The notes: generated by a model not told the origin, from the letters alone. A stretch of DNA of 64,000 nt from Elsinoe ampelina (GCA_010093995.1 ML992510.1:799127-863126), one strand, 5' to 3'. Positions 5,252 to 45,579 are shown, counted from the first letter of the stretch. Translations and numbers: made by a program.

Positions 5252-5827
5252 TGATGGGAAAGGACCCGCACTGGAGGGTAAGGAATCTTGCCCTGTCATA
5301 GTCTTCTTTGACCACGATCACGGTATCACATAGGATGCGGACCAGATGGGAATGCTGATGAGGCCTACGAACATTTCACCATAATCGACACTGTTACCCC
5401 TCGTGCATGGAGACCGTTTGCTAGTCATTGCAAAGTCCCACTCCCCCGCAGTGGTGGGTTGGGTGGGTGGGTTCAGATGTCCCGGGATCTCGACGACGTC
5501 CCTTCCATCTCGTCCCCATCTGCAGGTCTTCATGATGTCCATAACTTTCACCACGCCTTTCTAACATTATACCGTGCTCGGAGTATGCGACGGAGCGCAA
5601 CGTTGGTGGCGACTAGAATGGATCCTACCAGAATCCATCTGAGGTGAAGGATGTCGCTTCCTTGAGGCTACCTTGCACAAACTTACGGACCCCTCATATG
5701 ATGCTGTCGATCATGTGCATAGCGGGGACTCCGTGTCGCTTCAGCTCATCCCACTGGTCAAGGGCAACGCATAAGACCTCCTATGCTGGCAATGCACACG
5801 GCACGGAAAGGTTGTGATTACAGAACC

Positions 5828-7190
5828 ATGTCCGACACCCAAGGTAAACCCGACCGGGTAAGATTGACTATCTACCTATATCATCGCCCCGGGTCATCTC
5901 TTCTAGCTATGTGTCTAAAGCCGGCCGAACGTCACCTTCGTTGCCGCGATCGTTTCCTGAAGAACTACCACTTTGACAAGACATCACAGGCCCACCTCTC
6001 CTCTCCGTACCATCACCATTGGCACAGGCGTCTCGGGCATCCTCAATACCTTCCAAATCCAGAAGGACTTCCTATCTGAACCCGCTCGCAGCTCCCTCCC
6101 AACCTCTCCCGATCCCGGCATCGAGCATGTCACCTACGAGAAGAACCACGACATTGGCGGCACCTGGCTTGACAATCGCTACCCTGGTTGCGCCTGCGTT
6201 ATCCCTTCCCATGCCTACACCTACGACTGGGCTCTGAATCCCGACTGGCCCCGCTTCTTCTCCTACGGTACCGAAATCTGGGCCTCGTCTGCACCATCTT
6301 CAACCTCCGGCCATCTTGTTTTGGAAGCGAACGGGGGAGGTTGTCAAGGATGAGAGGTTGTCGAAGGGGTTCACGCCGTGTTTTGGGCTGGGTTGCAGGA
6401 GGGTCACGCCGGGGGGTCCCTGTATGCTTGCTGTGCTGGAGGGGAATGTGGATGTGCATTTCACTGCGGTCAAGGAGTGTACGGAGGCTGGGGTGGTGGG
6501 GAGGATGGGGTGCAGAGGGAGGTGGATACGGTAGTTTGTGCGACGGGGTTTGATGTTAGTTATCGGTCGAGGTTTAGTATTGTGGGTAAGGGAGGGGTGA
6601 GGTTGGATGAAAAGTGGAAGGCGTGTCCCGAAGGGTACTTGGGGTTGGGGGTGCCGGGGTTGCCGAGTTTTATTACGTTTATTGGGCCGACTTGGCAGGT
6701 CGATACTGTCCTGGTAGAGATGGGGAGAAGGTGCTGATGTGGTGACAGACCGGTTGAGAATGGGTCTGTGATGGGTCCGCTGCAGCAGGTGTGCAGTTAT
6801 GCCATGCAGGTTACTAGGAAATGACACTTGATCATGTCAAGTCTTGGATGCCGAGGCAGGATATCACGGACAAGTTCAACCAGCATGCGCAGGAAGTGGA
6901 TCAAGTATACAGTCTGGAAGCACGATTATCGGGATTGGTACAAGAACAACGAGACTGGTAGGGTGAAAGCGGTCTGGCCTGGATCTTCGCTGCATTACAT
7001 GAAAGCGGTTGAGACACCAAGGTGGGAGGACTTTGAGATCGAGTACAAGCATGAGAAGCCCTGGGCAGCGTTGGGCATGGGGTGGACGTTAGAGAATTGT
7101 GCTGGGCTGGGAAATGCGTATCCAAGTCCGTATCTGAAGTGGAGAATATTGATACGGAGTGGGCGAAAGCTGTCTCTGGGTGGAGGGGAG
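5828..7190 (+). pseudogene. Flavin-containing/Baeyer-Villiger-type monooxygenase (StcW-like) pseudogene
   Basis: FAD motif [45 protein letters not shown] and VWPGSSLHY are present but split over frames (shifts near 6500, 6825, 6895); the central NADPH-binding region is missing near 6290-6345. Confidence 0.85.
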
Positions 7191-7337
7191 ACTCTGTGGT
7201 GCACTGGAAGGAATGATTCGGATGTCGCGTTCTTTGTACGTCTGCAATCTAGGCCGTCGCTGTGCATTTAGGATACCGTGCTGTTCTGTTCTACAAAGCA
7301 CGATCCTAGGAGAGTGTTTCTTTTCGATGTAGCATCA

Positions 7338-8393
7338 TCAATTCTTGATTTTGTCCGGCTTGAGCAGCAAAGTGCCAGTGACTGGATCGGCTAGCGTCCA
7401 GCATGCTGAAGAGAGGGAGCCGATCAGAAAGTCGTACCCAAGAGCGCTGACTGCTGGATGGCTGTCAAGTCCTCTCAAGGCATTGTCGATATCTGGTAGG
7501 AAATGTCCTGAGAACGGTGATACGACAAGCAGCGCTTGCACAGCCACGACGAGGATGACAAGTGCATTGATTGCCGAGATAGCTCCTCTAATTTTTGACT
7601 GCTTGGGTTGACGTGCATTTGAGGCTGTCCTCGTGAGGAACGGGATGGCTAACAAGATTCTGGCGATGAGGATAACATAGATGATTTGCTGCCCGGCTGA
7701 AGGGGCGAAGAGCAGACAAGCCAGATACCCGAGACCGCTGAATAGCCATATCGTTGGTGTGCCTGGTATCGCTCGGTCCTGCTTTGTCGATGTGCCGAGT
7801 AGCGCAAGATACATGAGGTTTTGGGCAAATGAGATGGGCAAGATCTCAGCTAGCCCGATAAAGGCCCAGAGATGCGGCACTTTAGCTTGCCAGCCTGGTA
7901 GGACAATATCAGCAGTGTGTCCCGGTATCATGACCGAACGATGCTGACCTCTTGTGCACATGAACGCCACCCGAGTAAAGGTCATCGCAAGTGAAGCATT
8001 TGCCCAGACCCATCGATCCGAGCCTAGGGTAAGAGCAATTCCAAATTCTTGGAACAAAGTCGAGGTCTTGGACCACTCCCAGAGACTAAGAGGTTGTCGT
8101 CCGTTTCCGATCAAGCACCCAGGTCCAATGAAGTAATCAGGAAGGGGAATCGATCTGGACTGGGACCAGGTTCGGTAAGAAAGTATCAAAACATTGAGCA
8201 TGTGATATGAAAGGGTGCAGAAACTGAAGGTAGCAAGGATGGAAAAGAGAAGCCGAGCTCTAGGTGAACTTAGATTGGTCGGTGTGGTAGTTCGTATGAC
8301 ATTGATGCAAATGGCTGTGAAGGCCAATGCCGCCACGATGTACGACCAGAAGACGGATGCACCAAGCACACTCGAATAGCTGTCGTCAGCCAT
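7338..8393 (-). CDS. Conserved fungal multi-pass membrane protein of unknown function; probable in-frame intron 7895-7948
   Basis: 351-aa hydrophobic ORF; GTCAGC..CTGAT..CAG intron of 54 nt; motifs WEWSKTSTLFQEF, LAEILPISFAQNL, HPAVSALGYD. Confidence 0.7.
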   Translation of the reverse strand: MADDSYSSVLGASVFWSYIVAALAFTAICINVIRTTTPTNLSSPRARLLFSILATFSFCTLSYHMLNVLILSYRTWSQSRSIPLPDYFIGPGCLIGNGRQPLSLWEWSKTSTLFQEFGIALTLGSDRWVWANASLAMTFTRVAFMCTRGQHRSVMIPGHTADIVLPGWQAKVPHLWAFIGLAEILPISFAQNLMYLALLGTSTKQDRAIPGTPTIWLFSGLGYLACLLFAPSAGQQIIYVILIARILLAIPFLTRTASNARQPKQSKIRGAISAINALVILVVAVQALLVVSPFSGHFLPDIDNALRGLDSHPAVSALGYDFLIGSLSSACWTLADPVTGTLLLKPDKIKN

Positions 8394-8617
8394 TGGAATG
8401 CTCTCGATGATTCCGTGACACGACTGCTGTAGAGCAGAATGCTAAATATGCCCTGGTGAGCGTGTCGATTGGTCATTGATGGTATCGAAGGGGTGTTGGA
8501 AAGGTCAAGCTTTCGCCCCCGACCCTCGGGCAGCGACGAATTTGACCGAAACAGGCAAAAGATGGGGACCTGGGAGATGGTATGGGGTTCAATCTGGTTA
8601 AACTCGGGCAAACACCT

Positions 8618-11600
8618 TATTCTCTGTTGCAAAAGGGCTAGGATTTTCTTGGCAAATTTGCTTTTAAACGTCAGCTTAAACGACTAACTTCAACCTAATA
8701 GCTAATAACTCACTAATCAATTAAAAATTAAAGCTAAAAAAAGGTGTAATAGTAAAGTTAGTACTTCTAGATTAAGTAATAAAATAATTAACCAATTCGC
8801 AGCTAAATTGCTAGTGTTAGTGTCGCTATTACAATGCCTTAAATATACCTTATTCTATTGCCCTATTACATTAACTATATCTATAAGCTCTTTCTCTCTA
8901 GTATAAGTACTAATAATATTACTAACCTTACTAAAGGCCTCTTAAAGTTAAGATCTTATTACTTAAGGGCTAATTAGCTTACCTTTAGCTATATTAAGCA
9001 TCCGAAGGCATTAAAGAAGAGAGGGTAGCTACTACTATTACTACTCGAGGTGTTACTAGATATATAAAGACTATTTAAGAAGGAGTTAGATATATACTTA
9101 GAGGAGCTATAGAATTATTTAGAGTCTTATTAGTCGATTTCTGTATTAATTAGTACTATCTCTAGAGAGCTAAAAAAGTCAAATTACATATATAAGGTAT
9201 TAAGTTATACTACTAGCTAGAGAGATAAGGTACTCTATACTAAGTATTATAAAGAGATAAAGGCGTTTACTACTAACTAGCTCGTGTGTATAGATAAGAC
9301 TATAGTTAATAAGAAGACTCTATAGCGCTACTTTAGTTAGTTACTAAAGAGGTTACTAGCTATAGATCGCTTAGTAAGAAAGACAAGTAAGCGCTAGTTA
9401 GTACTTCTAGCGCTTACTATTAATAGATATCTCTATAGCGTAAAGGTGTTTTAAGGCTTAATTATAGCTACAATATTCGAGTGCTAGCTTTAAGAGGAGG
9501 TACTACTATAGTACTTACCTTATCTAGGCCTATAGTTAGTATTAGTATTAGATAATTATTAAATTCACTAGAGGAAGATATATAAAGAGTTTACTATCGC
9601 TACTATTAGCTACTTAGCTAATTACGTTAGGTAATAATTGACCTCTATTAATAGTATAGTATTTTAGTACGATTTTTACCTAGCTATTTACCGGATTATA
9701 ATCTAATTAAGCCTAGCTTCTATATATTAAAGTAGTATATACGGCGTAATAGAAAGGAGGTACCGTAGCTTAATATAGAGAGATACTAGCGTTAGTTTAA
9801 GGTGTTTATCTACGAGTCCTATAAGGACTTTTAGAGTAGTATTAACTTTAAAGCACTATTTAAAAACTGCAGATATAGGCTTAAATAAAGTCACCTATCT
9901 ATCGCTATTAATCTGCTATAATTATATACTATACTTAGGTTACTTCTCCTTATCGAATAATATTATACTAGGTATCTACTAAATAAAGAGGCTAAGGTAC
10001 TACTTTACCTTTACTCTAATACTATATAGAGGAATTATTCTCTCTAGCATCTTATTACTTAATTGCAAAAGCAATTTAAGGTCCTAGTAATCTATAATAA
10101 GCCGCTAAGTAGCGTTATAAAGAGGCACCTTAAAGTAAGAGTAGCGCTATATAAGGGAGTTAAAAAAGCAAGTAATATATTAAGAGTCTTTAGCCTTAAG
10201 AGGAAGCGAGCTTAACTAGAGAATTTTGTAATTACTATCGCTTATTATTAGTATAGAGAGAGGTTAAAGGGTAGTTAAAAGAGCTAAAGGTAACTCTAGA
10301 CAAGGTACTAGAGGCTAGCTACTATTATAGAAGTACTAGTTAAAGATAGAGGTTAAAGAAGGCCTATAGAGAGAAGGATTTAATTTGCCTTATTACCTCT
10401 TATATTACTTATACTTAGCTAACTACCTATCCTTACGAGCCTTAGTAGCGGCAGTAATAAAATTAATAATATAGACTAATAGCCTACTAGTAGTAGACTA
10501 GCCTATAGTAGTATTATATTGCTATTCGTTAATAATATTAGTATCGATAGTATAGTAAGTGCTACTAATAATAATATATACTACCTTATCTATATTCGAG
10601 CACTAGCTAGTTTTACACTAGTAAAACTCCTTAATATTATACTAAAATTACTTACGGAATGCCTTCTTAGCTTACGTATTTAATACTAATAGTCCTCGAG
10701 GTATATTGTAGTCTAGTTATTATAGTATAGCTTAAGAGAGGTAAGTAGTAGTACCTCGGATAGTATAGGGATTAGTAGTATTAGCTAGTACTAAGATTTC
10801 TCCCTTAGTAGAGATATTCTACTCTAAGGAGAATCTCCCTTATTAATTATTAACGTGTAATTGTAGCTCCTTCTTCTTTAAACTATAGTAGTGCCTTAGA
10901 AGGTTAATAACCTTATACTATAGTAATCCTAGCACCTTAAAGTTGTCTATAGAGTTAATAGAGTTACCCTTAGTAGAGGTAGTAAAGATCTTAGCCTTCT
11001 AAGAGAGGGAGTAGCATTATAGGCCTTATATATAAGTAAATAGATAGATAGTAGTAGCTGCCTTATTATAGATACTACTAATACTACTATTAATGTTATA
11101 AAGCTTATTAAATCGCTTAAGCTCCTTACTATCGAATTAAACTATCTAAACTCAGACGAACTAGACGTTTAGAGGAGGTATTAGTAATTACTAAGTCTAA
11201 GAGTTAGTAGAAGAACTTAGCGATTTTTGTTAATAGTAATAGCAAGGTAGTTTTAACTTAGATTAACTCTACTATCTCTCTAATACTTAAGATATACTTT
11301 ATAATGCTTCTCTACTAGTTGTCTTATTATCTAGTTACTCTTATATAGCTATTACTAAGTTAGAAGGGGAGGGGAGTATCGGTTAAGAGATATACCTTCT
11401 TAGTACTAATATTATAGTACTCTAGTAAGTAACTCTTTAACTTTTTTAGATAGGCTATTTAGCTTATAGTTTAATCTCTTTAACTTCTTTAACTTTACCT
11501 TCTTCTTCCTTAATAACTATAGGTCGACTTTAGCGCTTCTACTTTCTCTAAATACTTCTCCTAGCTAGAGCTTCTAAATTAAGGTTCTTTAGAGGCTTAC

Positions 11601-12136
11601 TAGCGTTTATATATACTATTCTTCTTATAGGCGCTTCTCTATTACTATCTCTATTAGCTTATAAAGTTTAAAGGCTAGTAAACTTAACGTAGTATAAGGA
11701 TTAAGCCTAGGCCGACTAAGGGGGAGAGTTAATAATCTTATAGAAGCCTTCTAATACTAGCATTTCTAAGAGCTCTAATAGGTTACTAAAATAAGATAGG
11801 TATCTAGTATTTAATCTATCTTCTTTAACTAGCTCTTTATTACGCTCGATAGACTAAGGGGGAGTAGTTATAAGGAGGGGGGAGCTCGGTAGTACATTAA
11901 AGGTGCTAGGGTTAAAGTCCTCTATCTCGGTAATTATCTAGTTAATTTATATATAAGTTAGATTAACTAGATTAAAAGACATGTAATTGCACTTGGCAGT
12001 GCTATTACACCTTTTTTTAGCTTCAAAAACGACGAATTAGGTAAGTTATAGTAAGATAGGTAAGAAGTGGTCAATTTGGTGGTGGTTTACACGCTGATTT
12101 GCTAAGAAAATCCCAGCCCTTTTGCAACAGAGAATA
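8618..12136 (+). mobile_element. RIP-inactivated Tc1/IS630-type (DD34E) DNA transposon with TA target duplication and ~135-bp imperfect TIRs
   Basis: Ends TATTCTCTGTTGCAAAAGGGCT(A/G)GGATTTTCTT(G/A)GCAAAT are inverted at 8618-8657 and 12097-12136; a perfect inner 22-bp IR lies at 8731-8752 and 12002-12023; de-RIPed + strand gives QLVCIDET (D 9293), PYPGPRSVLVLDNCQIH (D 9551), FLPSYSPDYNPIE (E 9709). Confidence 0.92.
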
Positions 12137-12657
12137 GTCAGCGTCAAAACCTCCACACTTGCATCAGGCCCTCCTCCTTGACCCTCTTCCCCAAACATGC
12201 AACATGCACGCCCCTAGTCATGTCCATCAACCTCTTTTGCTTGTTTCACGAATGGCTGGTAGGATGCTCGAAAACAAATCAGCTTCATCTGGCGCGGTTA
12301 ATTGGCGTTCGTTCTGAAAGACACGAGTATTCACGGGAATTCCGTGAACCGATCAAGATTGTCAGCGTCGTCATCATCAACTTGATTCATCGGTCTGATA
12401 GCATGCCAACTCCCTGTCTCTGGACTTACGGATGTCGTCTGCCAATCCCAAATCCGACTCGCTTGTGGCCAGGGAATCGTGAAAGTATAATATATAACAT
12501 CTAGGGCAGATTTACATTCGGGCCGGACCACCATTGACCAAGGTCAAGCTACTCGCCTAGACACAGGTTTGTAGGATCTAACACTCTGTACTAGGGACTA
12601 TGGCTGTGACTTTCTCTTCTCTCCTCTTCGTCTTCCTATAATTCCAATGGATCGAAA

Positions 12658-13914
12658 ATGAAAAGCCAGGCAATCGGCTACATATGTTATGCTGCCATCA
12701 TCACAGCATTCTCCACGGCTACTGTTATACTTCGCTTTGTTAGTCGCCGAATACATGGAGAGAAGATTTAGTGGGATGATTGGGCCATTTTGCTGGGCTG
12801 GGTAAGACATTTGCAGCCGCTGGCCTATAATATTCGCTTACCAGAGCAGTTCTTCCATCTTGCGCCAGCAGTCAATGTCATTATCTTCGAGAGTATGTAT
12901 TACGGTCTAGCCATGTCTAGTCGGCAGCTGATATACTGCAGGTGTGCAGGACTCGCTCCTGGACGAGACTGTCTTCGATGGTGACTTACCTCGTGAGCCG
13001 ACGAGGGCCAATGTTTTCTTCGCTGTGAGTATTCATAAGTCGCTTGAATTACTACCACACTGAATTTTGACAGCTGAGCTACGCTTTCTTCGCACTGTAT
13101 GGGCTGTCCATCAGCTTCACGAAATGGGCGATTCTCCTATTCTACTGGCGTCTGTTCAACTTAGTACGATGGATGAGATAGGCTGTCAAAATCGTCTCAG
13201 TCTGCATAGGATGCTAGACCCTTGGCGCTGTGGTAACTTGGCTAGCACAATGCCGACCGGTTTCAAGAGCATGGAACATTCTTGAGCCAGGGACATGCAT
13301 CAACTTCTACCTGTTTGCGCTGCTGATCACTACAATCAACCTCATATCCGACATTATCATCCTGATTCTTCCCATGCCAATCATATGGCACTTGAATACG
13401 ACGCTCGGCAAGAAAATCAGTTTGATGTGTGCTTTTGGGGTCGGAGGTTTCGTCTGTGTTGTGACAGCAGTACGACTACATCTCACCGTGCAGGGAGGCT
13501 CGGCGCCAAAATGTAGGTCACCCGCCCTGCCCGGTATAACTACCAGGCTAAATTTTCACAGTCGCAAGCTCTGTCGTTCTGGCGTGGACTCTGGCCGAAG
13601 TCTCTACAGCCGTGATCTGCGCCAATCTTCCATTCATATACTCTCTCTGTCTTCATTATCTACCACCATCTGTTAGGAAGATCTTTCGCCACGGATACAC
13701 CTCCAAGACTCAACCTACTGTTGACGGCGGAGGCTATGGATTACATCGAACCAAATCACATCGGCAGCCCTCCGTACCCTTGTCAGTCTTCCGCCAGGAC
13801 AGCAACGTCAGCGACGACCAAGTGAGAATAATATCGACGTCGCCAAGCAGTATGCATAAACTACCAGAGGACGATGCGATTTACATGACGAGGGAGTTCG
13901 ATGTGCGGAGGTGA
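12658..13914 (+). pseudogene. PTH11-like (fungal rhodopsin-domain) integral membrane receptor with premature stops
   Basis: ILRFVSRR..I*WDDW, TKWAILLFYWRLF, QCRPVSRAW, INLISDIIILILPMPIIWHL, ICANLP motifs; in-frame TAG at 12769, 13179, 13215. Confidence 0.85.
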
Positions 13915-15178
13915 TGCTGCTGTGGAGTGAGCTGGACAGGCTCAGGACCGATCGAGTTAGTGTCCATCTAAAGCTGTAAAAGTTCTTACGATACCACGGG
14001 AGGCTCAGTCGTTACCATCAATGTAATACCAGGAAGGTTCGTCCGTAATGTGCTGCCTCCCCCTCCCCCTAGTGTGCTTGAACAGCCGAGGTTGTCGATA
14101 AATGCCGAATTCCCTCTCCGTTCTTGCAAAGTCTTCCATGATCCGACCTTCCATCTCTCTAAAAGTTTGACTGCCTGTGTCTCAACCGAGATTCTTTCCT
14201 AGCTCATCGGACACACAATCCAGACTAAATGTGAAAGGTCTCGCCAGAAGCTGCCGCCAATGATAGATCTCAGCTGCGGCTGTGACCTCCAAACACATCA
14301 CCTTCCCAATTGCAGCTGATAGCAACGGCTGCACATCGTGCACTGTTAGCCGATCAGGAGCCGCAGACCGGAACCACAATCCGTTTAGACATGGACTTTG
14401 TAAGCGATGCTTGCTTCTTTCACATGTGAGCAGGAAACGGTTTTGGACTTCAGCTGCTTGGAATCAGCCACAAGAAGCCTAAGCATACAGCAATTGCGAA
14501 GATGTCACACGCGTTGAAGGAGCCTCAAACTGGATAGCACACTTCCACCATCCACTACTATTGGTCCTGTGGCAATGCAAAGTTTGAACATACTGCTTAC
14601 TGAACCGTCTCGAAGAGCAGACACGGCACATGGTCAAAGAACTGGTTCTCCGAACGTAATGACCCCCTTCGAGTTCTGTCTAGACTTTCGACAACTAGTA
14701 AATCCGCAAACCGGTCCAACATGTGGATACTGCATAACGCCTCAGCTGGATCTCGCCAATACCGTCCAAAGCCTGTGTGACCTTGCTACCACCTTGCCGC
14801 GTAGCAGTCCCCGGTTGGGCTTGCAAGACTTGCATGATTCAATGCAACCGGACGCAAACGGTCATTTCGCCATCGCATATTGCTAGCGGCTTCACATGCG
14901 TGGTCAAGACATGCGGCGACACCGTGCTGGCCTCCCGGCGGTCTCCTCGAGGGTCAAGCCATCCCGTTTCAGGCACAACAAGCTCCAACTGATGAATTGC
15001 AGGTGTAGCACTCTGCAGGAATGCGATAGTGTCCCCGTGGCTGTGATAAGCAGTGCATAGTCGTGTCTACAGGCAATCCTTTCCATTCTGCTCGTCCTGT
15101 TCATCACAGTCCAATTCAACTTCCTCCTCGCCAAATCCGATTTAACAAACACCGACAACCCTCTTCGTTGCTTTTACA

Positions 15179-20494: not shown

Positions 20495-20965
20495 ATGCTT
20501 GGGACGGCAGGTGGTGATCACAGTCGCATACAAGTGTGGTCGTCGGTCACGTGACATGCTGAGCTTTGGCCAACCTGCCTGGCGTCGGTCAACAACGTGG
20601 CAGTTCTCTTCTTCCCTTTACAATGCACGTCAAGCTTCAGTCACTATTGCCCACACCCAGACACTTCAGTTCTGGTAGGACTGGAGTACAATTACTACCA
20701 GAACTCAGCATTTGAGCACGAATTACAGGCTCTGAGACTTGCCAGTAAAATCCGGTAGTATTCGCAGTCACATCCTATTCGATGCTGGACCAGTTCGACA
20801 ATTGTTGCCTTTTCAAGGCGTGACCGACAACATGGGAGCCTCGATATCCTTATTGATAGTCACAGAGCACCACAGCCGGACCGAACACCGCGCAAAACTT
20901 GTCATGCATTTGCGGACATCAGAGGACATACTCGCCACCCGACAAGACAGGTCCCCTGTCCACTT

Positions 20966-38521: not shown

Positions 38522-39800
38522 ATGGCTGGTGACTCGGATCCAGAGAGAGAAAAGGCCCTCGATGACTACAAGAACAAGCTACTGGAGTCAAGAGAATGGG
38601 AGGCAAAGCTCAAGTCATTGCGATTAGAGATCAAGGGGTTGCAGAAGGACTTTGATGTGTCGGAGGATAATATCAAGGCTCTGCAAAGTGTCGGGCAGAT
38701 TGTGGGAGAAGTTCTGAAGATGTTGAGTGAAGAGAAGTGTACTTGATAGAAATCTGGTTGATGGAAACATCCGGCTGACATATCTCAGTCATTGTCAAAG
38801 CATCATCAGGACCCAGATACGTTGTCGGGTGTCGGTCGCGAGTGGACAAGAGCAAACTGAAGCAAGGCACACGGGTTGCGCTGGATATGACCACACTCAC
38901 AATCATGCGGACATTACCGCGAGAGGTCGACCCGCTCGTCTACAACATGTCGCTAGAAGATCCTGGACAAGTCAGCTTCGCAGGTATTGGTGGTCTCAAC
39001 GAGCAGATCAGAGAACTGCGAGAGGTCATTGAGCTACCACTCAAGAACCCGGAGCTTTTCATGCGTGTCGGAATTAAGCCGCCAAAGGGAGTCCTCCTGT
39101 ACGGTCCACCAGGAACAGGAAAGACACTCCTGGCCAGAGCCGTGGCCAGCAGTCTGGAGACCAACTTCTTGAAGGGTAGGCAAGATCTGTATTACGCCCG
39201 CAGCTGGACTGACGTGTAACAGTGGTGTCCTCCGCGATCGTGGACAAGTACATAGGCGAATCGGCGCGACTCATTCGAGAGATGTTCGGATACGCGAAAG
39301 AGCACGAACCCTGTATTATCTTCATGGACGAAATCGACGCCATCGGTGGCAGGAGGTTCTCAGAGGGCACATCAGCAGATCGAGAGATTCAAAGAACCTT
39401 GATGGAACTGCTAAATCAGCTCGACGGTTTCGACTACCTAGGCAAGACGAAGATTATCATGGCGACCAACAGACCAGACACACTTGACCCTGCACTTCTC
39501 CGCGCTGGACGTCTCGACCGCAAGATCGAGATCCCTCTTCCGAACGAGGTCGGCCGGCTCGAGATTCTCAAGATTCACTCGGCAGGTGTACAGAAGGAGG
39601 GCGATATCGACTTCGAGAGCGTGGTGAAGATGAGCGATCAACTCAACGGTGCTGACTTGAGGAATGTGGTGACGGAGGCTGGACTTTTCGCGATCAAGGA
39701 CTACAGGGATGCTATCAACCAGGACGACTTCAACAAAGCTGTTCGTAAAGTAGCTGAGAGCAAGAAGTTGGAGGGCAAGCTTGAATATACCCGTTTGTAG
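38522..39800 (+). CDS. RPT4: 26S proteasome AAA-ATPase subunit Rpt4; introns 38739-38788, 39176-39222
   Basis: [14 protein letters not shown] N-terminus, [29 protein letters not shown]-terminal KLEGKLEY. Confidence 0.97.
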
Positions 39801-39936
39801 CTATGCTAAGGTAGAGCTGCTAACAAAAGCGACGACGTAGCTTGCCAATCAGCAATGCAGAATTAATGATACTTCCATGTCTTTGACAGTGCCTCCGCTG
39901 TGCCTCCTTGAACCATAACAACATGCTTGATCCCTG

Positions 39937-40070
39937 TTTCGACGCTGCCGAAATCCCATGAATAGCCACCCCAATAGTATGCTTACTTCCTTTCGACGCT
40001 GCTGAAATCGACCAGAAGCCATCCTAGCAATATACTCCGTATTTTGACGCCGCCGAAACCGACCAGTAGC
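39937..40070. repeat. Three ~52-bp degenerate tandem units, each with a TTTCG-N7-CGAAA imperfect palindrome
   Basis: TTTCGACGCTGCCGAAA 39937, TTTCGACGCTGCTGAAA 39991, TTTTGACGCCGCCGAAA 40042. Confidence 0.9.
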
Positions 40071-40118
40071 CATGCCGGCTCAAATGGAGAGCCTCCATTG
40101 ACAGTCCAACGTGGACGA

Positions 40119-43100
40119 TTACTGCTTGCGCGCACGCTTCGCCGGTGGTGCTTTTGCCATCACCTCATCGTCGCCATCCTCCCCGTCATCGTCCTCGTCC
40201 GAGTCCGAGTCCTCCACCTCTGCCTTCTTTGCCTTCCTCTTCCTTGCACCTTCCTCCCTCTTCGTGAGTGGTACCTGTAGCTCGGCATGCTGCACGGACA
40301 TGTCGTGCTCCTTCACCAGGTGTTTGCGGAGTTGTGATGCGGAGGTGAAGACATCGTCCTGCTGGCAAGTCCCCAGAGGACACTGCTGCCGAAATTTGGC
40401 ACGTGTGGTTTTCTTGCGGACAACGAACGATTCGATCTCCTTTGGAGTCTTCAGATGAGGTGGAGCCCTAAGATGGGCTTTGAAGTGCTTCTTGGTCGTG
40501 AACTCCTTCTCATTGCCACATATGTCGGAAAAGGGGCACTTCATCGGATTCGGAAGATCATCATGCTCCTCTCGTAGGTGTTTCTGCAAGAGATTGTATG
40601 TCTCGAAGAGGACTTCCGGCTGATCGTCACAACGTGGACAAGGTCTAGGGACGTACTCATGCGTGGTCGAGATGTGTGCCTTGAGCGTTTCCTCTTTGAT
40701 GTATGACTTCTTGCAATTCTCGTATGGGCATGCGTGCTTCTCCTTGGTGGCAGTTGACTTGTCCTTGGTGCAGGCAACCTCATGCGTCTGAACGACATGA
40801 TGCCAGCGGTTTGTGTACTCGCATTTGCTGCAACGGTATAGATAGGGGGTCGGCGCATCTCTGCTGTTGCCAGTGGGAATATACTGCGCGACGACTGCCG
40901 CATTGGACGAGTCGAAGGAGCGCTTGAGCCTGTATACATTGATACCGGCAAAAACCGCAACAAAATCATTGCCGTTGAGCTCGGATGGCTTCACGTCCTT
41001 CGATCGATTCTGTGCGCCGGTCTGAGGTTCATTGAGGTCATCGGTCAGCACATGTACGATGGCTTCATCATCGATATCGTCGCTGTCGCTGTCGCCGGCG
41101 TCGTTGTCAGTCTTGAGCTGCTCATCAAGTACGGCATTGCCTGTTTGGTCGATGAGATCGCGGATCCAGTCGAGCTGCTCTTCGTCTACGTCAAGGGTTT
41201 CAATATCGTCCAACAGCAACAGTGGATCAATATTGCTCTCGTCCATGGCCGATTCTGGCGGCACCGAAAACGAGCTGTGTTGGTTCTCCACGTGGGTTGT
41301 GTTGATACGCGGAGCCATGCTCATAAATGTACTTTTCGACGGTGCTGGAACCGTGACTTGAGTGCTTATATGAGTCTCAGGTCCATCGACAGTGCTGAAA
41401 TTGGCGTGATGCTGGGTTTGTTTTGGCGGCATCGAAATTGACTTGGATGTGGTGCGAGGCTGATTGACAGGTTTAGCAACAGTGCTGGTATGGAGATCCT
41501 CCATGGCCTTCTTCGGCAGTGCTGCATTGACTGGTTTATTCACCTCGCTCGCAGTTTTGGTGCGAAGCGCTTGTGCGGGACGAGGACGAGAAATCAGCGC
41601 ATCTTGCTGCTCGAGTCTCCAAGCTGACTCGGCCGCTTTCTTGAGCTGCTTTCCGGCCTTGGTCCTCTGCAGATTGTCCTCCTTGTTCATCTTCTGCTTG
41701 TCCATGTATTCGTCAATGTCAGATTGCGTGAACTTCGGCGCATTGAAAGGAGTGTCGGCAAATTTGGGAGCTAGACGATTTTCGAAGGGATCCACAGCTC
41801 GCATGTTCCAGATGGGCGCCTGCAGATGACCAATGTAATCCTGGTTGGTGCCTTTGTCCAGAGCCTTTGTGGTATGGTTGGCGACCAAAGCGGTGCAGCG
41901 ATCTGATACGCCTTTGATAGACTTGCTCAAGTAGGCCACATCACGCAGTGCACCGTTCCGGATGAAACGAGTATTGACGGGGACCAGGATACCAGCGGCG
42001 AGAGACATGTCTTGAAGTGCATTGCGGATTTGGCTCTGGTGTGCAGGCTTGTCGTACGACAGTGTCGAAATACCACGAGCCATCTGGCATAGCACCGGGG
42101 TCTTCGGAGCAGACCATTGTACTTCTCCGTCACGGCGGGCGGCAGCCTCTGCAAGGACTGCATCGAGAGAGGTGTGTTTGACGCGGCCAAATCTGAGCGC
42201 TACAACCAGGAGTAACTTGACCACGCAGACGACATTCTGAGATGGGTCGCTCATCGGATCAATGAAGACGACTACCGATTCATTATTGGCAGATCTGAAG
42301 AGCAGGTCAGCACAAATCCATGCTCCAATATCAGTCAATACCAACTTGTGGCCTTTGGTGAATTCCAAGGTGACTTTGAGGCTGAGGTCATCGACACTGC
42401 CGGTTCGCTTGTTATCCTTGAACGTCAGGGAGAGGTGTTCCCAGCAAAGACATTCCATGCCTGTGTAGAGCGAGGACCTGGCAATATCGCCGGACCTGCA
42501 TGCACAGCTAGCTTGGAGCACAACGCCGAGAAGCTTGAGCAGGACACGATCCCAAGAGAGACAGCCTTCCGCAAGGGCTCTATCGATCCAGACTTCGGAG
42601 ATGCGGTGTATGACTTTGTATCCCAGCCACTGCCTCTTGAACCACGTCCCACGTACGAGGACCTTCTGAGTGACAAGTTGGTCGAGATGCATGCCGATGC
42701 GATTCACCCAGTACGTAGTGTAGTTGGTGGGCAGATCTTCGTGGCGGAACTTCAATAGGTCAATTAGGCGGCGCCAAATTCCACGGATGACTGAGAGCGA
42801 AGGCTGAGTCTTGCCTTTGAGACCTGGTCGAGTGTGGCGGGCTCTGACGTCGATGAAGCGAAAGATCTGCTCTCCGCTAGGGCATTGCTTGATACTGTAG
42901 CACATCAGTACTGTCGAAATGGGGCAAATGAAGGTCCTCCATTGACAAGGTCCTCCATTGACACAACGTGGTAGGAAGTCGAAGCAAGTACTACCAGCTT
43001 TGACACCTTTGATGGAGCCTGCTTGACTGAGCTCTGCCACCTCTGGTAGGATCACGACTCGAGACCTACCAGAGCTAGCTGAGCTCAGGCAGAAGGCTTG

Positions 43101-43450
43101 GTCCAAGGTGTCAAAGCTGGTAGGTACTTTTGGGTGATACTACCAGAAGTGCCAGAGCTGGTAGTTTCTTGGAGATTGATACTACCAAAAGGGACGACTT
43201 ACTCGTGCTTAATTGTCTGGCAAAAGGTATCCCACACTGCCATTACGCTCTGTTGAGCCTCGCGAGTCTTGGGAGCGCCACGGGCGAAGGTGAGCTGCCT
43301 TGCATTCTTCTTGCTGAGAGGTCGATCGGTCGCCTGATTGAGTAGGATAGCCTCCGAGACACGTTTGCCGACGTTCGGATTGGGTTTGAATATGCTCTTG
43401 TCGTGTTCGTCTGGTAGGTCTTCGAAATCGGACGAATTCAGGTCGTCCAT
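40119..43450 (-). CDS. Tyrosine recombinase-like protein with five C-terminal zinc fingers, ~990 aa; introns 42895-43202 and 42295-42345
   Basis: Exons of 248+549+2176 nt splice in frame; candidate catalytic order R (ACRSGDI), K (FTKGHK), RxxR (TRFIRNG), H (VANH), Y (QDYIG); one C2HC and four C2H2 fingers; acidic/basic tail. Confidence 0.8.
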
Positions 43451-43461
43451 CGTGATGGATT

Positions 43462-43632
43462 GTCCTACCAGAGCAGCAGGGCACTGGTAGGATGATTGGA
43501 AAGGTCCTACCAGGGCAGCAGGGCACTGGTAGGATGATTGGAAAGGTCCTACCAGGGCAGCAGGGCACTAGTAGGACGATTGGAAAGATTGTACTGATGG
43601 GCTGGTAGGATGATTGGAAAGGTCCTACCAGG
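43462..43632. repeat. 42-bp tandem repeat (3 full copies plus a partial one) built from alternating TCCTACCAG/CTGGTAGGA half-sites
   Basis: GTCCTACCAG(A/G)GCAGCAGGGCACTGGTAGGATGATTGGAAAG at 43462, 43504, 43546. Confidence 0.95.
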
Positions 43633-44531
43633 ATTGTGTTTGCATTATGGCAAAAAGGAAGGTCGAATTCGTTGAGCTGGTAGGATTAGAGCAAGAGTCC
43701 TACCAGGGAAGGACTTGGAAAGAGCGGTATCAGGCACGCGCTGGTGGTGCCTGGTCTTGGCGCGCGCGCCCTCTCAAAGGTACCTACCTACTGGGAGCTT
43801 CGACACTGCTGAAGACCAACACGTCACTGGTAACAGGATATCTGTTGTCTGTTTAATTATTGGCACATCGTAGTTTTCACAGAAGCGACATTGCATGGTA
43901 AATGACAGCGTCGACGGAATACTGGCAATTCACAAGGCCCATGTCACATTTCTGCGTTGTTCGAATGAGGGAGACAAGGAGTTGCGGCAATGTCGAAGGA
44001 ATCACTTTTCAGAAGGTCTGGGGTCAGATTCCCATTTATGTATTTTGGCGCGACCAAAAAACCGTGGAACGCGTGGGTTGCGATCAGACTAGTCTTTCAT
44101 TGGTCAATCGAAGTCTCTCCACTCCAGTAAATGTCACGTGATTTGACTTGGCTTGGGCACGGCAACGAGTCCATATGTCGCCACATAGTTTCTCATAGTT
44201 CAAAATGTCTAGCTTGAGTACCAAAAGCTTTAGGTCACGGCGACGACGGCGAGGATCTGTACTATAACACAGCTGCATCAGCGCGGCGCAGGAAGGACAA
44301 TAGGCTGAGATGGCCCGGCATGAATGAAAGCTGTTCTCTGGGCATTTGACGCACGATCTCCATAACCACGAGACGCCTGCATGCCACCAGAATACTCTGG
44401 AACCGTAATATCTCGACCCTCTCGTGTCGCTGGTAGGAATGGGGGCAATGGTACTACCAGAGCCACATCGCAGCATGGAGAGTACCATTATCAAGCAGAA
44501 ATACCAAGCACCCATCAACCCATATCGGACG

Positions 44532-45579
44532 TCAAACTCCATCAACAGGGTGGCTCTCCCCTCCTTCAGCCTCTTCTCGATACACATACTCCACCTCCCT
44601 CCCCCCCTCCCCATCCCCCATCCACTCCACATTCCTCCTCATCTCCACCTCCCCAAAGAAATTCACCTCCCCTACCTTCCTAAATCCCACCCCTTCGAAA
44701 AGCGCGATACTGCCCGTATTCTCCCGCCCAATCTTCACCCTAAGATACGCGAGCTCCACCTCCCTCTGCCCTGCCTCCCCCCTCACGTCGCGTCCGTCCA
44801 GCCCATTCCCGTTCGTCTCGCCCCGACCCTGATCCTGCCCCTGCCCCTGCCCCTCCGCCCTCGAAAGTCCAGCGGCGTACTCTGCGAGGATCTCATCGAG
44901 ATGTCCCTTGATGTATGCGATAAACGCCTGCAACGCCGCGCGGCCGTACCCGCTCCTCCGCGCCGAGGGGACGGCGATCATGATCTCGATTTCGCCGACG
45001 AGGTACTGTGGTGGGTTCGAGGCGGAAGGGAGGGAGGGTTCGGCGGATTCGGAGTCGTCGGGCGTGAGGAAGAGGTTGATGTCGCCTAGCATTCGCGGGG
45101 GGGAGTCGTGGTGGGCGGGGATGATAGGGGGATGGGTAGGGGGTTGGGAGGGGGATGGGTGGGGGGCAGCAGGAGAAGAGGAGAAAGGGGACAATGAGGA
45201 AGGGGCCAGGCAGATGATGAAGGTGAGTTTGTCGTGGTCGTGCCGCCAGGAGGATTGCATGGTGTATTCTTCTGGGAGGGAGAGGGGTTCGGAGGCTGTG
45301 AGGGCGAGGAGTGACTGGGGGTTAGCTTTTGTGTAGGTATTGACGGACAATATCAGGTAGAGTACTGAAGAGCATGGATATGGAGATAGGAATAGTGAAA
45401 GGTATGGAAGAGTTGTACCTACTTCATCCGTCATCCATTCGTGATAAGTTGGGACATGGTGTTTCTCGTATGGTACCAAGAGAACATTTTCCGTGACAAT
45501 CGCTAAAGTGCGATGTCAGTCGGTCTAGATCGCATTTGCACGTGCACGACATTTTACCTGTATGCTCATTGATCCTCAT
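44532..45579 (-). CDS. NAT9: GNAT N-acetyltransferase 9-like; introns ~45504-45557 and ~45315-45422
   Basis: MRINEHT, LVPYEKHHVPTYHEWM, LTASEPLSLPEEYTMQSSWRHDHDKLTFII, GDINLF, GEIEIMIA. Confidence 0.9.

Follow-up and report, generated by a model that had tools for sequence, protein, structure and literature searches.

The analysed stretch of the Elsinoe ampelina genome (64,000 nt, GCA_010093995.1 ML992510.1:799127-863126; termed the window in the following, with all coordinates counted from its first letter) contains on its minus strand a three-exon gene for a predicted tyrosine recombinase with C-terminal C2H2 zinc fingers. The first intron of this gene and the region upstream of its start codon harbour an array of dyad units, in which the heptamer CTGGTAG and its inverted counterpart CTACCAG mostly enclose a spacer of 16 nt (Table 1). 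With at most one mismatch allowed, CTGGTAG-N16-CTACCAG is matched eight times in the window against an expected number of 0.01, and seven of these matches are located inside the array (42968-43706). None of 100 dinucleotide shuffles of the window reached eight N16 matches. When palindromic pairs of all 7-mer arms at spacings of 10-24 were counted in the window, CTGGTAG was the only arm with more than two instances, its own shifted registers aside. At the locus, nine paired sites occupy 0.75 kb, a density about 350 times that of the other 59 kb, in which two were counted. The unit array is a real and statistically overwhelming feature of one locus. An earlier note on this DNA had described eight units, four of them in a 308-nt intron; all eight were recovered in place, units A-D do lie inside intron 1, and the five spacers quoted there are correct. 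The mismatch in the right arm of unit D had gone unmentioned, and the N47 arm pair, the degenerate unit, the two solitary dyads, the 144-bp palindrome and the window-wide excess of the half-site are additions to that note.

Table 1 Gene structure, dyad units and repeats of the recombinase locus, and dyads elsewhere in the window
Feature	Position	Strand	Description
Exon 1	43203-43450	minus	ATG at 43450
Intron 1	42895-43202	minus	308 nt, GTAAGT..CAG; contains units A-D
Exon 2	42346-42894	minus	
Intron 2	42295-42345	minus	51 nt
Exon 3	40119-42294	minus	stop codon 40119-40121; rest of recombinase domain, low-confidence linker (likely disordered), C2H2 fingers
Unit A	42968-42997		GTGGTAG-N16-CTACCAG, one mismatch in left arm; intron 1
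Unit B	43043-43072		exact N16 dyad; intron 1; centre of 144-bp palindrome
Unit C	43117-43146		exact N16 dyad; intron 1; mosaic of A-type and B-type halves
Unit D	43158-43188		CTGGTAG-N17-CTACCAA, one mismatch in right arm; intron 1
N47 arm pair	43411-43471		exact arms, 47-nt spacer; start codon (43450-43448, minus strand) inside spacer
Unit E	43484-43513		exact dyad, 9-bp arms; upstream of ATG
Unit F	43526-43555		same sequence as E; 42-bp tandem copy
Degenerate unit	43568-43597		left arm CTAGTAG, right arm lost
Unit G	43602-43631		30 bp as in E and F, flanks differ
Unit H	43677-43706		exact dyad, 9-bp arms, spacer of its own
Solitary dyad	20672-20701		exact N16, arms extend to 11 bp; between 3' ends of two convergent reading frames
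Solitary dyad	44430-44460		exact N17; about 70 nt past stop of neighbouring GNAT gene (minus strand)
Tandem repeat, 42 bp	43462-43587		3.0 copies, 96% matches; 30-bp unit plus 12-bp linker
Imperfect palindrome, 144 bp	42986-43129		centred on B; ends reach 5-6 nt into the spacers of units A and C
Different palindrome family 3' of gene	39937-40103		three tandem TTTCGACGCTGCCGAAA-like copies at 51-54 bp spacing, then ATGGAG..CTCCAT palindrome

Structure and local history of the dyad units

Alignment of ten units together with their flanks revealed that conservation is confined to 30 bp. Eighteen of the 20 arms are exact, and the two variants are a G at position 1 of unit A and an A at the last position of unit D. 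The arms reach 9 bp, with G or T at position 8 and A or T at position 9 in all 20 arms; these two additional positions are paired in just five of the ten units. Both arm variants break pairing on the plus strand and neither is compensated. Arm conservation is one of sequence and not of pairing. For the spacers, six distinct N16 sequences were compared with shuffled spacers after removal of the two bases beside each arm: of the 12 inner positions that are left, 3.2 are shared, as in the shuffles (also 3.2; 49% of the shuffles reach the observed value). Since the inner spacers are at shuffle level and the arms are conserved, the conserved object is CTGGTAGKW, followed by 12-13 free bases and WMCTACCAG. 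The spacer is N16 in eight units and N17 in two; the unit measures 30 bp overall, and its half-site centres are 21 bp apart, corresponding to two helical turns. From one unit centre to the next the distances are 75, 74 and 41.5 bp within the intron, and 42, 42, 34 and 75 bp in the upstream region, equivalent to roughly 7, 7, 4, 4, 4, 3.2 and 7 helical turns. The linkers between units range from 11 to 46 bp, and those between A and B and between G and H (44-46 bp) are unrelated in sequence. The fixed arms, the fixed spacing and the free centres support the view that the units behave like sites for a sequence-specific protein.

According to the earlier note, simple tandem duplication does not explain the array. 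This holds only in part: units E, F and G (43484, 43526 and 43602) have one spacer in common, and E and F are copies within the 42-bp tandem repeat, whereas the other spacers are unrelated. A mosaic structure was found for unit C. Its left arm, flank and half-spacer correspond to the right half of unit A (13 of 14 flank positions), and its right arm, flank and half-spacer correspond to the left half of unit B (11 of 14 flank positions and 5 of 7 half-spacer positions). Together with the ends of the 144-bp palindrome, this mosaic indicates that the copied modules span from unit centre to unit centre. The junctions of the duplications and of the palindrome fall in the variable unit centres, and such junctions would be producible either by a recombinase crossover in the centre or by hairpin-loop-directed template switching.

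The array as a whole could have arisen through replication errors that palindromes provoke (fold-back priming, slippage or template switching, for instance) and have no binding function. A palindrome with unit B precisely at its centre and with its termini in the loops of units A and C, the 42-bp tandem repeat and the recurrence of half-units with their flanks as modules would all be in agreement with such an origin. However, in the absence of selection the arms should have decayed at the same rate as the centres, and the arms have remained almost entirely exact with the centres at random level. Furthermore, the spacing has been kept at 16-17 nt, and dyads with unrelated flanks are present 19-22 kb away from the gene and from the array. 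We therefore regard a purely neutral origin as quite unlikely. If protein binding should fail, the array would still be a good example of palindrome-driven local growth within an intron.

Alternatively, the 30-bp unit itself might be a tiny dispersed mobile palindrome, similar to the bacterial repetitive extragenic palindromic (REP) sequences or to mitochondrial hairpin elements, that has piled up in a non-coding region. Copies with unrelated flanks are indeed found at 20672 and 44430 and, within the array, in units G and H, and all copies are non-coding except for one arm of the N47 pair. On the other hand, the arms alone are common and the unit bodies differ, so that only E, F and G have been copied as a whole unit; target-site duplications do not flank the copies, and only two copies are present outside the array in 59 kb. 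In addition, one contig of run X1, from which this DNA may derive, extends unbranched from 39300 to 43502 across the locus and breaks only in the 42-bp repeat; it gives no sign of identical copies elsewhere, the absence of which contigs cannot prove. This mobile palindrome is the reading to which we would give the least credit. A recently active miniature inverted-repeat transposable element in the intron was also considered and dismissed, as the same contig is unbranched across the intron.

Other repeats were noticed within the gene and its flanks. Two tandem copies of the 16-bp sequence AAGGTCCTCCATTGAC are located at the 3' end of intron 1 (42931-42963), and a third copy, 81% identical, lies just past the stop codon of the same gene (40087-40102). 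Words of the form TTCGAC..GAA that are similar to the palindromes on the 3' side of the gene also occur at 41387, 42057 and 43798. Upstream of the array there are unrelated palindromes, namely CAGGCAC..GTGCCTG beside a GC-rich run (43720-43790) and TTTTGG-CGCGA-CCAAAA (44043-44059), as well as a CACGTG box near 44135.

Folding of the array was calculated for long stretches and for single units. As sense-strand RNA, intron 1 reaches a minimum free energy of -139.4 kcal/mol (z -7.8) and the upstream 361 nt reach -114 kcal/mol (z -7.6); in neither case was any of 100 shuffles as stable. Strong folding of such long stretches is accounted for by the fact that any inverted-repeat array folds so. Single units were folded as single-stranded DNA and yielded energies between -3.0 and -7.7 kcal/mol only; in four of the eight, equally good folding was seen for 6-19 of 200 shuffles. 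Conceivably, the units are RNA stem-loops in the 5' leader and in intron 1 that throttle translation or splicing or expose guide loops, with the long hairpin of the intron feeding RNA interference as a Dicer substrate. Besides the strong sense-strand folding, this reading can draw on the position of the start codon within the N47 pair, on the variant of unit D, which is a G-U pair on the sense strand, and on three microRNA-precursor-like matches on the intron palindrome, all of them below threshold (20-26 bits against 76-90 needed; the best, with 26 bits, stays far below its gathering score of 80). However, a compensatory change is found in no pair, the variant of unit A breaks pairing on both strands, and 7-bp stems with 16-nt loops are marginal. 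No Rfam family was found at the gathering score in the whole window. Solitary half-sites elsewhere in the window cannot form hairpins yet have the same consensus (see below), and units E-H, which lie 33-256 nt upstream of the ATG, may be outside the transcript. At up to three mismatches, seven of the eight spacers have no match elsewhere in the window, and the eighth matches only its own tandem copies and two further places at chance level. The more speculative proposal of the earlier note, hairpins with variable loops that guide the recombinase, is without support in the window, in which the spacers are without targets, the arms do not co-vary and no Rfam family is present. RNA stem-loops thus appear unlikely, and the weak folding of single units, the missing compensation, the consensus in solitary sites that cannot pair and the absence of Rfam and spacer matches favour recognition of the units as duplex DNA.

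The recombinase gene, its product and its neighbourhood

The limits of intron 1 were read from the sequence and from the point at which the exons are joined in P0002, an annotated protein that one source lists as a hypothetical protein of Elsinoe ampelina; RNA contigs that span intron 1 were not found. Intron 2 is in frame and free of stop codons, so that the raw frame reads through it and gains 17 residues. It is skipped exactly in one contig of run X3 and missing from P0002, and the gene model and P0002 are identical wherever they could be aligned, except for these 17 residues. The X3 contigs, tentatively taken to be RNA, extend at low depth over a large part of the coding region and leave gaps at 42846-43232 and 43634-44224. 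The left arm of the N47 pair lies in exon 1, where it is read as the codons Leu-Pro-Asp with CTA for Leu, a rare choice (17 of 241 codons for Leu, 7%, in seven sampled reading frames, one of which, labelled YR_exon3, was read out of frame). A reading of the units as mini-introns (GT..AG within each unit) was rejected: the dyad at 44430 is unspliced within contigs of X3 and X4, both tentatively taken to be RNA, which end near 44321-44328; no joint was found at any unit, and the 5' end of the unit is unlike the GTAAGT-type donors of real introns. We read this dyad as part of the 3' untranslated region of another gene.

When compared with Pfam, P0002 gave a sole match to zf-C2H2, which was below the cut-off, and P0002 itself has no Pfam match to Phage_integrase, DUF3435 or GCR1_C. 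A profile built from nine relatives retrieved 2961 cluster representatives at E ≤1e-3, and 370 at E ≤1e-30, among 1.84 billion. In an alignment of 48 sequences the putative catalytic residues R216, K263, R378, H406 and Y419 are either invariant or conserved to at least 90%, and the same is true for the Cys and His residues of the fingers. DUF3435 was matched by 20 of the 48 relatives (E ≤0.01, best 2.7e-10), zf-C2H2 by ten and Phage_integrase by three; GCR1_C is absent from the full list of 16 families that these relatives matched. The AlphaFold model of P0002, calculated with the 48 sequences, has a mean predicted local distance difference test value of 77.8, with values above 90 over most of residues 60-500 and of 84-86 in the blocks 30-60. 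A Foldseek search in the PDB returned chains of Cre recombinase as top matches (3crx_A, E 1.5e-6, target template modelling score 0.63; range over these top chains, E 1.5e-6 to 1e-3 and target scores of 0.60-0.67), and the C-terminus, with about five C2H2 fingers, matched the finger arrays of CTCF and TFIIIA. A sequence-profile search of the PDB found zinc fingers only and no solved recombinase. As modelled, the protein is a Cre-fold tyrosine recombinase with about five C2H2 fingers, and the zinc-finger tyrosine recombinase named in the earlier note is borne out by the structural matches and the alignment. Judged from the domain matches of its relatives, the protein family is a distant relative of the DUF3435 proteins known as Starship captains. 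The Zymoseptoria tritici protein P0003 (63% identical) and the proteins P0005-P0009 are closer to P0002 than the homologues of the loci compared below.

The neighbouring genes are ordinary: a proteasome ATPase-like frame (38779-39800, named from its translation) on one side and a GNAT acetyltransferase (44532-45515) on the other, with about 4.7 kb between the stop codons of the two. Enolase, HMG-CoA reductase and others follow at greater distance. No cargo was seen, and housekeeping neighbours of this kind speak rather against it. The X1 contigs show no sign of a second identical copy of the locus, although contigs cannot prove its absence. An AT-rich island at 8001-12000 (GC content 0.31-0.36 compared to about 0.52 elsewhere) may be a decayed repeat region.

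Candidate binders of the half-site

We assume, with a rough probability of 0.4, that the units are dyad sites for dimers of the adjacent recombinase/zinc-finger protein, with an autoregulatory or a lox-like function. A sequence-specific protein would bind the duplex DNA as a dimer, each subunit contacting one CTGGTAGKW half-site; the two half-sites would be inverted with their centres 21 bp apart, and the 12-13 bp between them would be unconstrained. The binder would be the Cre-fold recombinase of the locus itself with its about five C2H2 fingers. Phased occupancy of its own promoter or 5' leader, of the start codon and of the first intron would then limit its own expression. The same 30-bp units may double as lox/FRT-like sites that are cut and rejoined in the variable centre. 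In favour of this reading we count the clustering of the units, arms conserved in sequence and not in pairing, the free centres, the kept spacing, the poor folding of single units, the near-helical phasing, the predicted recombinase fold with its conserved residues, the rare Leu codon at the half-site in exon 1, and the junctions in the unit centres, which for strand exchange would be indirect evidence only. The earlier note had proposed arm-type binding sites for this protein; the type of protein and the site-like behaviour agree with our results, whereas the geometry of 30 bp and 21 bp fits core-type (lox/FRT-like) sites better.

A bolder form of the same idea takes the dyads as naturally occurring lox-like sites of a eukaryotic recombinase family that is so far uncharacterised, combines the Cre fold with C2H2 fingers and is akin to the Starship captains; the variable 12-bp centres would serve as crossover 'addresses'. 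The zinc fingers or the core-binding domain would read the outer 9 bp, and a modest collection of heterospecific sites would be assembled at the locus. Scars left by the enzyme on its own sites might be seen in the 144-bp palindrome, the 42-bp repeat and the mosaic units, and the excess of half-sites described below might represent potential landing pads or a domesticated, genome-wide role of the protein. We consider this form improbable at present.

The distribution of the half-site in the remainder of the window was determined on both strands with 39800-44500 masked. CTGGTAG/CTACCAG is present in 30 copies and about fourfold over-represented; the Markov expectations are 6.5 at order 1 and 11.1 at order 3. 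It ranks tenth among 8079 canonical heptamers with only low-complexity words ahead. It is the first of 420 words of the same composition (30 copies compared to a mean of 7.0, standard deviation 4.2) and, in three parts of the window taken separately, its ranks among the 420 are 1, 1 and 9 (13, 10 and 7 copies). Its 21 single-base neighbours have a mean of 8.3 and a maximum of 16 copies. Three unrelated fungal loci contained one heptamer site in 26 kb. After subtraction of the two arms of the dyad at 20672, 28 solitary half-sites are left, 23 of which have G or T at position 8, a consensus as in the dyad arms. They are located in real exons (Abp2, HMG-CoA reductase, enolase) in differing frames, and also in non-coding DNA. 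Codon usage was rejected as the cause of the excess, as the exonic sites are in different frames and on both strands and the heptamer outnumbers the 419 other words of its composition as well as its single-base neighbours. Decayed second arms beside the solitary half-sites were likewise dismissed: at spacings of 15-17, arms with two mismatches accompany 3 of the 28 half-sites compared to about 1.1 expected, and arms with one mismatch none. A heptamer about fourfold over-represented in both coding and non-coding fungal DNA is unexplained and deserves a genome-wide look regardless of what binds to the array.

Homologous loci were obtained from one metagenome scan (L001, L002 and L003, with protein identities of 36%, 30% and 45%). 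In L001 and L003 the scan for recurrent dyad arms began 2 kb upstream of the start of the match and reached into the gene; L002 was scanned entirely. The introns of L001 are at the same two positions and have about 56 nt each, which indicates that the 308-nt intron 1 of Elsinoe ampelina is an expansion. The L003 homologue has in-frame stops early in exon 1 and beyond (5660-7130) and no intron 1; it looks like a decayed copy. L001 has a palindrome of its own, AAAGTACTTT, with nine exact copies, all at or beyond 5963, and 14 copies with up to one mismatch compared to 0.69 expected. It is present in both introns of the L001 homologue and onward to the end of the locus (5963-14438), well past the recombinase gene, and is absent from the 5.9 kb that precede its first copy, itself located in intron 1. 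No further relatives were found in collections of viral and genome contigs.

Several of these results weigh against the adjacent recombinase as the binder. Known core sites have arms of 11-13 bp, and the conserved arm of the units, with 7-9 bp, falls short of this. In P0002 and P0003 the first His of the HxxR motif is replaced by Arg, while it is His in the other relatives. The heptamer is over-represented outside the locus and occurs in real exons and in non-coding DNA alike, and the two full dyads away from the gene (20672, which is 19.4 kb past the recombinase stop codon and 22.3 kb from the array, and 44430) are both in 3' regions of other genes. A mobile element is expected to bear sites at both ends, and no CTGGTAG half-site is present on the 3' side of the recombinase gene in the 39937-40103 region. 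Neither the CTGGTAG motif nor any recurrent dyad arm was found in the three homologous loci. For a site that belongs to a low-copy element there is no obvious reason to be enriched in housekeeping genes; the half-site excess is the strongest evidence against a purely element-private site, and we have no explanation for it. The earlier note had itself named a motif equally common genome-wide and its absence from homologous elements as findings that would speak against its proposal. Both apply in part: the half-site is enriched in the flanks, where two dyads are also present, and the motif is absent from all three homologues, which are distant ones (30-45% identity).

The main rival is a host DNA-binding factor with the genome-common half-site CTGGTAGKW, of which the recombinase gene would have acquired a dense, phased cluster for regulation or for recruitment of the factor. 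The window-wide over-representation of the half-site with the same extended consensus, the two dyads far from the gene and the lack of the motif in the three distant homologous loci all are in agreement with such a factor, and the abundance of AAAGTACTTT in L001 indicates that species-specific abundant words exist in such genomes. However, the solitary sites are as frequent in coding exons as elsewhere, which is unusual for transcription-factor sites; the paired sites are strongly concentrated at the recombinase locus, and both solitary dyads are at the 3' ends of genes and not in promoters. A host factor remains doubtful in our opinion, and we continue to prefer dimers of the locus's own recombinase.

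Comparison with known systems

The En/Spm transposons of plants carry 12-bp TNPA motifs in subterminal position, and binding of these motifs represses expression and prepares the element ends. Similar to the present array, many copies of a short motif, partly in inverted pairs, are clustered over the promoter and the 5' part of a gene that belongs to the element. In contrast to the situation here, En/Spm transposases are of the DDE type and the arrays are present at both ends, whereas the 3' side of our gene features another palindrome family and no CTGGTAG. In integrons, attC is recognised in the form of a folded single strand that carries extrahelical bases, and gene cassettes lie between one site and the next. 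The attC sites resemble the units in being tyrosine-recombinase sites with conserved 7-bp inverted boxes and a variable centre, arrayed by the 5' end of a recombinase gene. The units differ by their linkers of 11-46 bp, the lack of cassettes and the weak folding of single units.

The core sites of the loxP/Cre and FRT/Flp systems have a 13-8-13 geometry. More generally, tyrosine-recombinase sites are given as inverted repeats of 11-13 bp with a spacer of 6-8 bp (PMC3212892). The dyad units fit this format in their total length of 30 bp and in the 21-bp spacing of their half-site centres, but only 7-9 bp are conserved per arm and 12-13 bp are variable. Like lox and FRT, which are bound by a recombinase dimer, the units consist of inverted arms with a total length of about 30-34 bp, centres 21 bp apart and a middle part that is outside the recognition sequence, and the protein encoded next to the array has a predicted Cre fold. 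Unlike lox and FRT, which are present as one or two identical sites at element ends, about ten sites with different centres are assembled here in one locus. Neither lox/FRT nor the plant transposon arrays nor integron attC sites fully fit the array on their defining features.

The fungal systems are closer with respect to the protein. The Starship captain Enterprise is reported with a zinc finger (PMC11162782), and the ends of Starships are given as short direct repeats, accompanied now and then by terminal inverted repeats (PMC9156397, PMC11162782). The recombinase of the present study is probably a distant member of this fungal Cre-like group, in line with the DUF3435 matches among relatives of P0002, and the 5' end of a recombinase gene is the place where signals of an element end are expected. 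Differences to Starships are the lack of a DUF3435 match in P0002 itself, the housekeeping neighbours, the absence of visible cargo, and the fact that arrays of 30-bp dyads do not appear in the described ends. For Cryptons, PMC3212892 mentions a GCR1_C domain in CryptonF and, in place of inverted repeats, only terminal direct repeats of 4-6 bp. With CryptonF the locus would share the character of a small, single-gene fungal tyrosine-recombinase element of low copy number, whose protein has a DNA-binding domain at its C-terminus and whose limits are difficult to draw, but the domain here consists of C2H2 fingers and is not GCR1_C. In literature on the heptamers, on DUF3435 combined with C2H2 fingers, on Starship captains, on Cryptons and on transposable elements of Elsinoe ampelina, we found no description of such an array. 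Likewise, the accessible parts of the Starship and Crypton literature (PMC3212892, PMC9156397, PMC11162782) did not contain defined DNA sites for these recombinases. For this field, a 30-bp dyad next to a gene for a putative Cre-fold/zinc-finger recombinase represents a concrete candidate for a recognition site, and, if recombination at the units holds true, the protein and its dyads would provide a new recombinase and site pair of eukaryotic origin for genome engineering, comparable in geometry to Cre and lox.

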